Shown here in pieces: positions 3,338-7,656 of a stretch of 64,000 nt of DNA (its first letter is position 1; every line of letters begins with the position of its first letter). The stretch comes from Escherichia coli (GTDB taxonomy: Bacteria; Pseudomonadota; Gammaproteobacteria; Enterobacterales; Enterobacteriaceae), in the NCBI RefSeq assembly GCF_003991155.1, contig NZ_CP031293.1; one strand, given 5' to 3'. The position numbers were made by a program, and so were the translations under genes. The notes under the pieces are model-generated. The model did not search any database and had not been told where the DNA came from. It saw nothing but the letters and a program-made list of their open reading frames with translations.

Positions 3338-4117
3338 TTAGTAGCTGCTGGCGCTCTTACCGTCGCCGTGGCCCAGAGCCTTCAGCAGGCTTGCCAGCAG
3401 GCTGGAAGCACCAAAGCGGTAGTGACGCGCATCAGCCCAGTCAGCACCGAACAGTTCATCGGCGATGGAGAGATATTTCTGCGCATCTTCCGCAGTACGC
3501 ACGCCGCCCGCCGGTTTGAAACCAACGGTTTTTTCTACGCCCATATCGCGGATCACTTCCATCATGATGCGCGCGCTTTCCGGCGTCGCATTCACAGCCA
3601 CTTTACCGGTAGAGGTTTTGATGAAGTCAGCACCCGCTTTGATGGAGATTTCAGACGCTTTACGGATCAGCGCTTCGTCTTTCAGTTCTCCGGTTTCAAT
3701 AATCACTTTCAGCAGGACGTTCGCCGCAGCGCAAGCCTCTTTACAGGCTTTCACCAGGTCAAAACCAACCTGCTCGTTACCCGCCATCAGCGCGCGGTAC
3801 GGGAACACCACGTCAACTTCATCGGCACCGTAGGCGATTGCCGCACGGGTTTCTGCCAGCGCGATTTCGATGTCGTCGTTACCGTGTGGGAAGTTAGTTA
3901 CCGTAGCGATACGGATTTCCGGGGTGCCCTGCTCTTTCAGAGTTTTGCGAGCAATCGGGATAAAGCGAGGATAGATACAGATAGCGGCGGTATTGCCGAC
4001 CGGAGTTTTGGCCTGATGACACAGTGCGATCACTTTCTCATCGGTGTCGTCGTCATTCAGGGTGGTCAGGTCCATCAATTTCAGTGCACGCAGGCTGCTT
4101 GCTTTCAGATCAGTCAT
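3338..4117 (-). CDS. deoC: Deoxyribose-phosphate aldolase
   Basis: ORF 3338..4141; internal Met gives a 259-aa product [24 protein letters not shown]...; first gene of the deo operon. Confidence 0.92.
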
Positions 4118-4161
4118 TTCATTCTCCTGGCTTGTCGCCAATAAAATTCACCTTGCGAGTT

Positions 4162-4177
4162 TGTTAGTATTCTAACA
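4162..4177. promoter_or_regulatory. DeoR operator (O2, deoP2-proximal), near-palindrome TGTTAGTATTCTAACA
   Basis: 16-bp palindrome about 45 bp upstream of the deoC start; exactly 599 bp from the second copy at 4761. Confidence 0.75.
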
Positions 4178-4374
4178 TCTACTTCGCAACACACTTCGAT
4201 GTACATCACAATTAAGGAAATCTACTTACAAGTTTGCATCACTGTAATGCGATCTGGTTCAAATAATTCACTTTCAAATGAATGCGTCAGTGGTGGCAAA
4301 CGCATCAGGATCAAAGTGAACATCACGAAACTTCTTACAATGGCGCATCACCTTCGGCATAAAAGGAAAAGAAG

Positions 4375-5925
4375 ATGCCCACTTCTCATGAAAATGCACT
4401 GCAACAACGTTGCCAGCAAATTGTCACCAGCCCGGTACTTAGCCCGGAGCAGAAGCGCCATTTTCTGGCACTGGAAGCAGAAAACAATCTGCCTTACCCC
4501 GCGTTGCCTGCCGAAGCCCGCCGCGCGCTGGATGAGGGGGTAATCTGCGATATGTTTGAAGGTCATGCGCCGTACAAACCGCGCTATGTCTTACCCGATT
4601 ACGCCCGTTTTCTGGCGCACGGTTCCGAATGGCTGGAGCTGGAAGGCGCGAAAGACCTTGATGACGCACTCTCTCTGCTGACCATTCTTTACCACCACGT
4701 ACCGTCGGTCACATCGATGCCGGTCTACCTGGGGCAACTGGATGCGTTGTTGCAACCGTATGTTAGAATTCTAACACAAGACGAGATCGATATTCGAATA
4801 AAACGTTTCTGGCGTTACCTCGACAGAACCCTGCCAGATGCCTTTATGCACGCCAATATCGGCCCGTCTGATTCGCCCATTACCCGCGCAATCTTACGTG
4901 CAGACGCAGAGTTGAAGCAGGTTTCACCGAACCTGACCTTTATCTACGATCCTGAAATCACCCCTGATGACCTGCTGCTGGAAGTGGCGAAGAACATCTG
5001 TGAATGTAGCAAACCGCACATCGCCAACGGTCCGGTGCATGATAAAATTTTCACAAAAGGGGGCTACGGGATTGTGAGCTGTTACAACTCACTGCCGCTG
5101 GCGGGTGGTGGCAGCACGCTGGTACGCCTAAACCTGAAAGCCATTGCCGAGCGCAGTGAATCGCTGGAGGACTTCTTTACGCGCACTCTACCGCACTACT
5201 GCCAACAGCAGATCGCCATCATCGATGCGCGGTGTGAATTCCTCTATCAACAATCACACTTCTTTGAGAATAGCTTCCTGGTGAAAGAAGGGCTGATTAA
5301 CCCTGAACGTTTTGTGCCAATGTTTGGCATGTACGGACTGGCGGAAGCAGTTAACTTACTGTGTGAGAAAGAAGGAATTGTCGCACGTTACGGTAAAGAA
5401 GCCACCGCAAATGAAGTGGGTTATCGCATCAGCGCGCAACTGGCGGAGTTTGTCGCCAATACCCCTGTGAAATATGGCTGGCAAAAACGCGCCATGTTAC
5501 ACGCACAGTCGGGGATCAGTTCCGATATCGGCACCACGCCGGGCGCGCGTTTACCATATGGCGATGAGCCAGATCCGATTACCCATCTGCAAACTGTCGC
5601 CCCGCATCATGCTTATTATTATTCCGGCATCAGCGACATTCTGACGCTCGACGAAACCATCAAACGTAATCCGCAGGCGCTGGTACAGCTTTGCCTCGGT
5701 GCCTTTAAAGCCGGAATGCGTGAATTTACCGCCAATGTCAGCGGTAACGATCTGGTTCGCGTTACTGGTTATATGGTGCGTTTGTCGGATCTGGAAAAAT
5801 ATCGTGCCGAAGGTTCACGTACCAACACCACCTGGCTGGGCGAAGAGGCCGCACGCAACACTCGTATTCTGGAACGCCAGCCGCGCGTGATAAGCCATGA
5901 ACAGCAGATGCGCTTTAGTCAGTAA
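4375..5925 (+). CDS. yjjI: Glycyl-radical-enzyme-like protein YjjI (DUF3029)
   Basis: 516-aa ORF; C-terminal RVTGY motif resembles the glycine-radical signature RVSGY; followed by an overlapping radical SAM activase gene. Confidence 0.85.
4761..4776. promoter_or_regulatory. DeoR operator (O1, deoP1), perfect palindrome TGTTAGAATTCTAACA
   Basis: Perfect 16-bp palindrome; the 599-bp spacing from the 4162 site matches the known O1–O2 distance; lies inside the annotated yjjI ORF. Confidence 0.75.
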
Positions 5926-6760
5926 GATTATCCCCTTCTCCTGCGTTGACGGGCCAGGCAGTCGTCTGGCTCTGTTTTTGCAGGGCTGCAATCTGCGCTG
6001 CAAAAACTGTCACAATCCGTGGACGATGGGACGTTGCAATGATTGCGGGGAGTGCGTGCCACAGTGTCCGCATCAGGCGTTGCAGATTGTTGACGGCAAA
6101 GTGGCGTGGAACGCTGTAGTCTGCGAGCAGTGCGATACCTGCCTGAAGATGTGTCCGCAACATGCCACACCAATGGCGCAATCCATGAGCGTGGATGAGG
6201 TGCTTAGCCATATCCGCAAAGCGGTGCTGTTTATCGAAGGGATAACGGTAAGCGGCGGCGAAGCCACGACCCAGCTGCCGTTTGTGGTGGCGCTGTTTAC
6301 TGCTATCAAAAATGATCCGCAACTGCGCCACCTCACCTGTCTGGTGGACAGTAATGGCATGTTGAGCGAAACCGGCTGGGAAAAATTGCTTCCGGTGTGC
6401 GACGGCGCAATGCTCGATCTCAAAGCGTGGGGGAGCGAATGTCATCAGCAATTAACCGGACGCGATAATCAGCAGATCAAGCGCAGCATCTGTTTGCTGG
6501 CAGAGCGCGGTAAGCTGGCGGAACTGCGTTTGCTGGTAATCCCTGGCCAGGTGGATTATTTGCAACACATCGAAGAACTGGCGGCGTTAATCAAGGGACT
6601 TGGCGATGTTCCGGTACGCCTGAACGCGTTTCATGCCCACGGCGTGTATGGCGAGGCGCAAAGCTGGCCGAGCGCCACGCCGGAAGACGTTGAGCCGTTG
6701 GCTGATGCGTTACAGGAGCGCGGGGTGAGCCGGTTGATATTTCCGGCGCTGTATTTGTGA
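5897..6760 (+). CDS. yjjW: Glycyl-radical enzyme activating enzyme (radical SAM) YjjW
   Basis: 287 aa; N-terminal CNLRCKNC (CxxxCxxC radical SAM motif) plus ferredoxin-like Cys clusters ([24 protein letters not shown]); start overlaps the yjjI 3' end. Confidence 0.85.
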
Positions 6761-6763
6761 CAT

Positions 6764-6890
6764 GCCGGATACGGCCTACGGATCGGCATAAACTTGTAGG
6801 CATGATAAGACGCGTCAAGCGTCGCATCAGGCATTGTGCGCCAGCTGCCGGATGCGGCGTGAACGCCTTATCCGGCCTACGGCACGTTAA
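6764..6890. repeat. REP/BIME-type repetitive extragenic palindromes
   Basis: Repeated GCCGGATGCGGCGTGAACGCCTTATCCGGCCTAC-like units between convergent yjjW and yjjV. Confidence 0.7.
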
Positions 6891-7656
6891 ACAACGTATA
6901 CGTGTTATTAAGCAACACTTCGGCAATTTCATCTGCGGGTTCCAGGCGTAACTCACAAAGCACAGCAAACACCCGCGCGGCCTGTTCCGGGCGGTTAGGC
7001 TGCCCCTGAAAACCGTTGAGCGGCATATCCGGCGCGTCGGTTTCCAGCAACAACGATGCCAGCGGTAATTTTGCGATGACATCGCGGGTTTTACTGGCGC
7101 GTGGATAGGTGATAGTGCCACCTACGCCAATTTTGTAGCCCAGCTGTACAAACCGTTCAGCCTGTTGCAGGCTGCCGGAAAAACCGTGAACCACGCCAGT
7201 ACATGGCAAATCGTGGCGTTTAAGATGCATCGCCAGTTTGTCGTGTGTGCGCCGTGAATGCAGGATCACCGGCAGATCGTAGCGTTTCGCCAGTTTCAGT
7301 TGTTCGTCGAGTAACCACTGCTGCCTCTCAAATTGCGGATCGTCGCCAAAGAGATCCAGACCGATCTCCCCCACCGCCACCACCTTCGCCGGACGCCTTT
7401 CCAGCGCCTGCTGTAGCTGATCAAGAGACACATCGCTATGTTTTTCCAACATACCAGGATGCAAGCCCAATGCGGCATACAGCGGTTGATATTTTTCCGC
7501 TAACGCCTGCACGCGGGCAAAATTTTCCGCCTCTGTCGCCGGAACAATGATCTTGCCTACGCCCGCTTGTGCCGCACGTTGCAGGCTGGCCTCTTCATCG
7601 CCACTAAACGGCGGGAAATCAAAATGGCAGTGGGTGTCGATAAAACGGCAAATCAA
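6877..7656 (-). CDS. yjjV: TatD-family metal-dependent hydrolase/DNase
   Basis: 259 aa; N-terminal IDTHCHFD motif typical of the TatD family; 4-nt overlap with upstream yjjU. Confidence 0.85.
   Translation of the reverse strand: MICRFIDTHCHFDFPPFSGDEEASLQRAAQAGVGKIIVPATEAENFARVQALAEKYQPLYAALGLHPGMLEKHSDVSLDQLQQALERRPAKVVAVGEIGLDLFGDDPQFERQQWLLDEQLKLAKRYDLPVILHSRRTHDKLAMHLKRHDLPCTGVVHGFSGSLQQAERFVQLGYKIGVGGTITYPRASKTRDVIAKLPLASLLLETDAPDMPLNGFQGQPNRPEQAARVFAVLCELRLEPADEIAEVLLNNTYTLFNVP

Follow-up and report, generated by a model that had tools for sequence, protein, structure and literature searches.

The yjjI-yjjW gene pair, at positions 4375 to 6760 of a 64,000-nucleotide stretch of Escherichia coli DNA (contig NZ_CP031293.1 of assembly GCF_003991155.1; hereafter the window), very probably constitutes a self-contained module, expressed anaerobically, in which yjjI encodes a glycyl-radical enzyme and yjjW its dedicated activase. 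This is the standing annotation of the pair in Pfam, NCBIfam and RefSeq, hence already known and no discovery of ours; what goes beyond it here is the placement of YjjI as a minimal third lineage, a set of negative membership tests, the anatomy of the promoter and operators, and a lead toward nucleoside catabolism. In family-model searches YjjI scores 730 bits with Pfam PF11230 ('Glycyl radical enzyme YjjI-like') and, against a cut-off of 498, 786 bits with NCBIfam TIGR04040 ('YjjI family glycine radical enzyme'); its RefSeq label in K-12 is still 'DUF3029 domain-containing protein'. YjjW reaches 398.7 bits with TIGR04041 ('YjjW family glycine radical enzyme activase', cut-off 250.2) and also hits Radical_SAM and several Fer4 models. 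Both NCBIfam models are typed 'hypoth_equivalog', meaning that function is not known. YjjI is the sole predicted glycyl-radical enzyme of E. coli K-12 without an assigned reaction; it is near-universal in E. coli, is strongly conserved, and is found in pathogens such as Salmonella, Haemophilus, Proteus and Vibrio.

The gene pair

The two genes are laid out as follows, with the evidence in brackets:

4375-5925, plus strand: yjjI, 516 aa, minimal glycyl-radical enzyme of the YjjI family (open reading frame list, PF11230, TIGR04040, AlphaFold2 fold, dN/dS)
5897-6760, plus strand: yjjW, 287 aa, radical S-adenosylmethionine (radical-SAM) activase dedicated to YjjI (TIGR04041, Radical_SAM, Fer4, PflA homology, adjacency)
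5897-5925, plus strand: overlap of the yjjI 3' end with the yjjW 5' end, 29 nt (open reading frame list)

An earlier note on this DNA, made from the sequence alone, had placed the pair at exactly 4375-6760 and had described yjjW as overlapping and downstream of yjjI, as the open reading frame list confirms. The overlap likely provides translational coupling. On the opposite strand lies deoC, with its annotated ATG at ~4117, 257 bp from the ATG of yjjI. Several complete E. coli chromosomes annotated deoC/yjjI/yjjW/yjjV match positions 4100-6900 at 100% identity, and most of this stretch is present in 5422 of 5426 complete E. coli genomes.

Predicted catalytic motifs and fold of YjjI

Three sites in yjjI carry the catalytic assignment:

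5758-5772, plus strand: glycine-radical motif RVTGY, aa 462-466, predicted radical site G465, codon 5767-5769 (invariance, pyruvate formate-lyase alignment)
5074-5088, plus strand: predicted Cys loop VSCYN, aa 234-238, with C236 (codon 5080-5082) as predicted thiyl-radical cysteine (invariance, pyruvate formate-lyase alignment)
5287-5289, plus strand: codon of the invariant glutamate E305, candidate general acid/base (invariant column in the 26-sequence alignment)

The YjjI family is small (538 clusters at 50% identity, in at least 592 species genomes), and an alignment of 26 homologues spanning 30-90% identity leaves just nine invariant columns: G83, G120, D123, L174, C236, E305, G418, R462 and G465. 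C236 is the sole invariant cysteine, and N238 of the Cys loop is nearly invariant. The RVTGY motif, noticed earlier as a glycine-radical signature in the C-terminal part of YjjI, indeed lies at residues 462-466, 51 residues from the C-terminus, and because R462 and G465 are retained in homologues down to 30% identity, the motifs are not a chance resemblance.

Searched against the PDB, the YjjI family profile finds glycyl-radical enzymes only: pyruvate formate-lyase (PFL; E 2.6e-4), YbiW, HPAD, NrdD and a chain labelled benzylsuccinate synthase. The alignment that the earlier note had proposed as a check, around the Gly motif and the active-site Cys residues, came out positive: YjjI 'YGIVSCYN' is placed on PFL 'YAIACCVS', pairing S235-C236 with C418-C419, and 'VRVTGY' on 'IRVSGY', pairing G465 with G734; C236 (with PFL C419 as its counterpart) and G465 are both invariant. 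An AlphaFold2 model built from the 26-sequence alignment (pLDDT 91.3, pTM 0.91) gave glycyl-radical enzymes as all 50 of its top 50 Foldseek matches in the PDB, with class III ribonucleotide reductases in first place (E 9e-18, TMq 0.77). YjjI thus combines the ten-stranded alpha/beta barrel common to ribonucleotide reductases with the RVxG[FWY] motif and Cys-loop cysteine of the glycyl-radical superfamily, and its cognate activase is encoded alongside. Profile alignment and predicted fold together support the assignment of YjjI as a glycyl-radical enzyme. Alignment to E. coli NrdD by hhalign did not convincingly superimpose the Cys loops.

The barrel core that the superfamily shares accounts for ~450 of the 516 YjjI residues, and little is added to it. 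We read YjjI as a minimal, deeply branching, separate lineage whose Gly and Cys loops are PFL-like and whose overall shape is closest to NrdD. At a length so near to a core-only fold, it could serve as a useful minimal model for radical transfer.

The YjjW activase

Three features define YjjW:

5948-5965, plus strand: N-terminal activase motif DGPGSR, aa 18-23 (aligns with PflA DGPGIR)
5987-6010, plus strand: radical-SAM cluster motif CNLRCKNC (CX3CX2C), aa 31-38 (aligns with PflA CLMRCLYC)
6035-6154, plus strand: ferredoxin-like insert with two CX2CX2CX3C motifs, aa 47-57 (6035-6067) and aa 76-86 (6122-6154) (gap versus PflA)

YjjW has the DGPGxR and CX3CX2C motifs of activating enzymes and scores above the cut-off of its own family model. 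It is 26% identical to PflA (E 1e-21), which lacks the ~50-residue insert and the two extra cluster motifs that follow the SAM-cluster motif in YjjW. Scores for the PFLE_PFLC model TIGR02494 (133.5 bits, cut-off 174.35) and for the NrdG-like model TIGR02491 (46 bits, cut-off 126) fall below threshold. The layout is that of activases serving enzymes other than PFL. The CxxxCxxC motif and the two ferredoxin-like Cys clusters that the earlier note had pointed out are both present, and its view of YjjW as a glycyl-radical activase is borne out by the TIGR04041 score, the PflA homology and the type of insert. In the archaeal and L088-type homologues discussed below, the activases are 247-250 aa long and the ferredoxin-like insert is missing.

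Within yjjW, at 5966-5982 (codons ~24-29), we also find an intragenic sense-strand sigma-54 site, CTGGCTCTGTTTTTGCA, an exact match to site IS57, which is a strong sigma-54 binding site by chromatin immunoprecipitation sequencing (ChIP-seq; PMC4591121). It overlaps the codons of the conserved LALFLQG just ahead of the radical-SAM motif, and its downstream target is not evident.

Considering the two proteins jointly, we expect C31/C35/C38 of YjjW to ligate one SAM-binding [4Fe-4S] cluster and the ferredoxin-like insert to house two auxiliary clusters. Reductive cleavage of S-adenosylmethionine would yield a 5'-deoxyadenosyl radical that takes a hydrogen atom from Gly465 of YjjI; the glycyl radical so stored would pass to Cys236 on the opposing finger loop in the ten-stranded barrel, and the resulting thiyl radical would take a hydrogen atom from a small substrate and reclaim it after rearrangement. 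Our sequence analysis shows gene structure, motifs, conservation, fold, linkage, purifying selection and promoter conservation; that a radical forms on YjjI, what C236 and E305 do in it and which type of reaction it catalyses are what we infer. The earlier note had called the substrate of the pair uncharacterised, and a search of the available literature indeed returned no paper characterising it; full-text searches on YjjI and YjjW gave omics tables and annotation lists only.

Linkage and selection

Linkage was assessed in 86 loci with a YjjI homologue. A locus search with an alignment of 11 sequences kept 80 loci, all from close gammaproteobacterial relatives, and distant contexts were sampled singly. 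A yjjW homologue adjoins yjjI in 84 of the 86, archaeon included; of the remaining two loci, one is on a short contig ending just past the start of the downstream gene. The order of the two genes is reversed once. The same 29-nt overlap occurs in E. albertii, Hafnia, Proteus and Providencia; in distant pairs it shrinks to 4 nt. Ratios of non-synonymous to synonymous substitution rates (dN/dS) between E. coli and other genera are low (0.04-0.10 for yjjI, 0.08-0.17 for yjjW), a sign of strong purifying selection, indicating that both are functional genes.

The archaeal homologue (contigs L001-L003) was assigned to its lineage by the neighbouring genes for eIF-1A, NMD3 and RIO1; an AdoMet decarboxylase and an alpha/beta hydrolase are encoded upstream of the pair on the same strand. 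YjjI homologues occur in a further distant lineage, represented by L088-L090. One database protein of 574 aa, from a 2.9-kb contig, joins a sequence 99% identical to YjjI to a DeoC/LacD aldolase domain (PF01791). This fusion is probably an assembly or gene-calling artefact, since deoC and yjjI lie on opposite strands in E. coli. The convergent yjjW-yjjV gap (~6765-6880) is filled with repetitive extragenic palindromic (REP)-type repeats, such as gccggatgcggcgtgaacgccttatccggcctac, which is why BLAST placed a query of the stretch at a median of 34 sites in each E. coli genome.

The predicted yjjI promoter and anaerobic expression

The predicted promoter elements are:

4302-4315, plus strand: predicted FNR site CGCATCAGGATCAA of the yjjI promoter, with a conserved right half GGATCAAA at 4308-4315 and a degenerate left half (10-genus alignment)
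4336-4341, plus strand: predicted yjjI -10 hexamer TACAAT (T, A, A and T invariant in 10 genera)
4363-4368, plus strand: Shine-Dalgarno sequence AAGGAA of yjjI (sequence)

An alignment of the intergenic region from 10 enterobacterial genera recovered the known deoP2 elements and two more invariant blocks, namely GGATCAAA and the hexamer TACAAT/TACACT; within the predicted FNR site, GGATCAA is invariant. The spacing of GGATCAAA and the hexamer would fit a class II FNR promoter, with the site centred ~40 bp upstream of a predicted start at ~4348. A scan with the FNR consensus allowing up to 2 mismatches returned no conserved site, the half-site having emerged from the 10-genus alignment only. 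One other candidate, TCGATGTACATCAC at 4196-4209, was rejected as an FNR site: it is the deoP2 CRP-1 site (TTCGA-N6-TCACA, 4195-4210) and matches a CRP ChIP-seq site.

FNR binding and FNR-dependent anaerobic induction of yjjI have been shown by others. Myers et al. 2013 place yjjI among the operons that FNR activates directly, with a ChIP peak at 4,615,181 and the remark 'TSS not known'; shifting the older coordinates by +1977 bp, a conversion verified by the published sigma-54 site falling exactly on 5966-5982, puts this peak at ~4282 in the window. A paper on the HU regulon likewise lists yjjI as FNR-activated, a comparison of aerobic and anaerobic transcriptomes in Yersinia intermedia reports fold changes of 4.3 for yjjI and 2.1 for yjjW, and yjjI co-clusters with narG in biclusters of both E. 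coli and Salmonella.

The deo control region within yjjI

The yjjI gene and its promoter share their DNA with the control region of the deo operon, whose elements are (strand not assigned):

4162-4177: DeoR operator O2, TGTTAGTATTCTAACA, at deoP2 between yjjI and deoC (16-bp palindrome with 1 mismatch)
4195-4263: deoP2 CRP sites, CRP-1 at 4195-4210 and CRP-2 at 4248-4263, just upstream of the yjjI promoter (sequence, conserved blocks, ChIP-seq)
4761-4776: DeoR operator O1, perfect palindrome TGTTAGAATTCTAACA, in yjjI codons 129-134, YVRILT (palindrome scan)
5040-5055: candidate DeoR operator OE, TGATAAAATTTTCACA, in yjjI codons 222-228 (4 mismatches; spacing)

The palindrome matches at O2 and O1 lie 599 bp apart, against a chance expectation of 0.14 matches, and the distances from OE are exactly 279 bp to O1 and 878 bp to O2; these spacings agree with the ones reported for O2, O1 and OE by Dandanell and co-workers. 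In 59 of the 86 loci, among them 48 of the 50 in which the open reading frame caller placed deoC divergent within 600 bp, an O1-like site is found at the corresponding position; it is missing in Proteus, Providencia, Gilliamella and Vibrionaceae, which have no adjacent deoC. The YVRILT segment in which O1 falls is variable elsewhere in the YjjI family.

The predicted yjjI promoter thus sits between O2 and O1. With O1 and the candidate OE inside yjjI, transcripts from deoP1 run antisense through the first ~130 codons of yjjI and through its promoter. The earlier note had described the pair as divergent from the deo operon; this holds for the opposite-strand deoC and understates the arrangement, as the deo P1 operator region lies within yjjI itself. 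CRP-1 is 53 bp from CRP-2, which in turn is ~93 bp from the predicted yjjI start, an arrangement like that of the FNR-plus-CRP ansB promoter. CRP ChIP-seq in enterotoxigenic E. coli H10407 assigned a site TGTGATGTATATCGAA to yjjI/deoC and located a second inside yjjI (PMC4287617). We find the latter, CGTACCGTCGGTCACA, at 4698-4713, ~50 bp from O1.

Gene neighbourhoods and a lead to the substrate

Gene neighbourhoods yield a lead to the substrate, held here with low confidence: a ribose-containing metabolite of nucleoside catabolism. YjjI might act in anaerobic nucleoside catabolism, performing radical chemistry on a ribose moiety (e.g. dehydrating or deoxygenating a nucleoside or a pentose phosphate) and so feeding the Deo pathway, in which DeoC yields glyceraldehyde-3-phosphate and acetaldehyde. 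Such a role, which we regard as a tentative possibility, refines the glycyl-radical module described above and does not replace it.

Several neighbourhoods point this way. In Enterobacteriaceae and Hafnia the pair stands back-to-back with deoCABD; O1 and OE fall within yjjI there, and the predicted yjjI promoter adjoins the deoP2 CRP sites. In Orbaceae (8 Gilliamella loci and Orbus) a same-strand cluster ends in the pair, in the order deoD, nucleoside:H+ symporter, (adenosine deaminase), 5'-nucleotidase, cytidine deaminase, pyrimidine-nucleoside phosphorylase, yjjI, yjjW; in Orbus just 53 bp separate yjjI from the preceding gene. A 35%-identical metagenomic homologue lies mid-way in a tightly packed same-strand cluster of nucleoside type, with a RihC-like nucleoside hydrolase, an ADP-ribosylglycohydrolase-family protein, a PfkB kinase, a DeoD-type phosphorylase and a sulfatase-family protein on its upstream side, followed by YjjI, YjjW, an MFS transporter, a BMP-family binding protein and an ABC ATPase. 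The H. influenzae gene order, as given in one sentence of PMC5609409, is yjjI, radical SAM, NupC/NupG transporter. Chemical precedent exists as well: NrdD, structurally the closest to YjjI, works on C2'/C3' of ribose, and PflD, a glycyl-radical sugar-phosphate dehydratase precedent, has been captured with bound 1,5-anhydromannitol-6-phosphate (8id0). The nucleoside neighbourhoods together with the NrdD-like fold make a ribose-containing substrate a reasonable lead.

This lead must be tempered by several considerations. Most other contexts have no nucleoside genes beside the pair, namely Proteus, Providencia, three Vibrionaceae loci, the archaeal contig and the loci L005, L087, L088 and L098; Enterobacterales, Orbales and Pasteurellales are related orders, such that the adjacency may be one inherited synteny; and the reported co-expression of yjjI is so far with nitrate/nitrite respiration genes. 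Possible ancestral synteny among three orders and the many lineages without the association keep our confidence in it low. Most of the distant contexts sampled share no recurrent neighbour, and this suggests that the module stands alone and that its substrate is a common metabolite.

Two further neighbours deserve mention. In the distant lineage with the nucleoside-type cluster, a sulfatase-family (alkaline-phosphatase superfamily) protein is encoded directly before YjjI on two independent contigs (L101, 3806-5341; L102, 1-897), a hint that the substrate might be sulfated or phosphorylated. Each of the three Vibrionaceae-type loci has a LysR-family regulator directly downstream of yjjW on the opposite strand (L085, 10452-11423; L097, 11466-12362; L100, 10397-11326); it may be a dedicated regulator, in which case its ligand could reveal the substrate. 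A LacI-family regulator beside the Aliivibrio pair is GntR/IdnR-like and not CytR.

Taken furthest, the lead would make YjjI a previously unrecognised third glycyl-radical lineage with novel radical chemistry at the ribose moiety of a nucleoside or of a pentose phosphate, e.g. an NrdD-like 2'-dehydration or deoxygenation outside nucleotide synthesis, an extension that we consider unlikely as a whole. If true, facultative anaerobes would gain a radical branch of nucleoside catabolism feeding DeoC, controlled by FNR and possibly by DeoR/CytR, and an oxygen-sensitive radical step would be added to a pathway that for decades has been regarded as completely charted. The anoxic gut is rich in nucleosides as carbon sources.

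Alternative explanations and comparison with known systems

Some observations weigh against YjjI-YjjW as a glycyl-radical enzyme and activase under anaerobic control. A phmmer search of the PDB with the single YjjI sequence found no relative (best E = 1, to the unrelated Sso10a), so that the homology rests on weak profile matches (E 2.6e-4) together with a predicted structure, and hhalign probabilities are modest (73% to PflB, 88% to NrdD). The predicted FNR site is just a half-site, and the ChIP peak is ~26 bp away from it. Our search of the available literature found no report of a glycyl radical on YjjI or of any activity, nor a biochemical paper, and a 2025 paper listing the glycyl-radical enzymes of E. 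coli leaves YjjI out.

One alternative makes the pair a decaying or non-functional remnant without a current role: no phenotype or activity has been reported, and the K-12 protein goes by its DUF3029 name in RefSeq. The conservation data already contradict this explanation, to which we assign almost no credence, as dN/dS is 0.04-0.17 across the two genes, the stretch is mostly kept in all but 4 of the 5426 E. coli genomes, the catalytic residues do not vary across bacteria and an archaeon, and anaerobic expression is regulated. The class III-like shape of YjjI could suggest a second, cryptic anaerobic ribonucleotide reductase, which we judge very improbable. E. coli NrdD has a C-terminal Cys4 zinc ribbon (C644/C647/C662/C665), a Gly loop RRVCGY (G681), an ATP cone/specificity site and a second redox cysteine; YjjI, with 516 aa against 712, has no zinc ribbon, no ATP cone, specificity site or N-terminal extension, a Gly loop of the form LVRVTGY, no cysteine after residue 440 and no second cysteine invariant among the 26 sequences. 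E. coli YjjI does not reach the NRDD model PF13597, and its activase is of PFL type with a ferredoxin insert, unlike the 154-aa NrdG. Mutants in nrdD cannot grow strictly anaerobically, and YjjI therefore does not substitute for NrdD.

The pair PflB/PflA offers the one detectable sequence-level similarity of YjjI. A further alternative, which we think very unlikely, is a PFL-like 2-ketoacid formate-lyase or a 1,2-eliminase of the C-x-E kind (diol dehydratase, choline lyase). In its favour, PFL is the top profile match, the Gly loops are nearly alike (RVSGY in PflB, RVTGY in YjjI), the position of the Cys loop and the PN(L/M)T strand preceding it (PNLT in YjjI) align, and EcoGene labelled the H. 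influenzae orthologue a pflB homologue. Against it, YjjI has S235-C236 in place of the C418-C419 pair, and with only one of the two PFL cysteines is not a member of the PFL family in the narrow sense. The E. coli protein also falls below the Pfam PFL-like (PF02901) and Gly_radical (PF01228) models, only PF11230 being reported, and faint matches to the PFL-like or NRDD model are confined to some of its homologues. PflB has 759 aa, and the ~250-300 peripheral residues by which lyases and dehydratases of the PFL family exceed YjjI are missing from it. In glycerol and propanediol dehydratase, CutC, HypD, IslA, PflD and YbiW the Cys loop contains C-x-E; its YjjI counterpart is C236-Y-N238.

We return to YjjI as a separate, minimal glycyl-radical enzyme served by YjjW, and to what its active site would permit in comparison with these systems, for two of which, PflD and YbiW, the PDB now holds substrate-analogue complexes. 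The lone cysteine (S-C-Y-N) and the absence of C-x-E argue against both the C-C cleavage of PFL and a disulfide-based reduction. A single thiyl without a redox partner favours a radical rearrangement of the lyase or dehydratase type, perhaps with the participation of the invariant E305, which could stand in for the C-x-E base of the eliminases.

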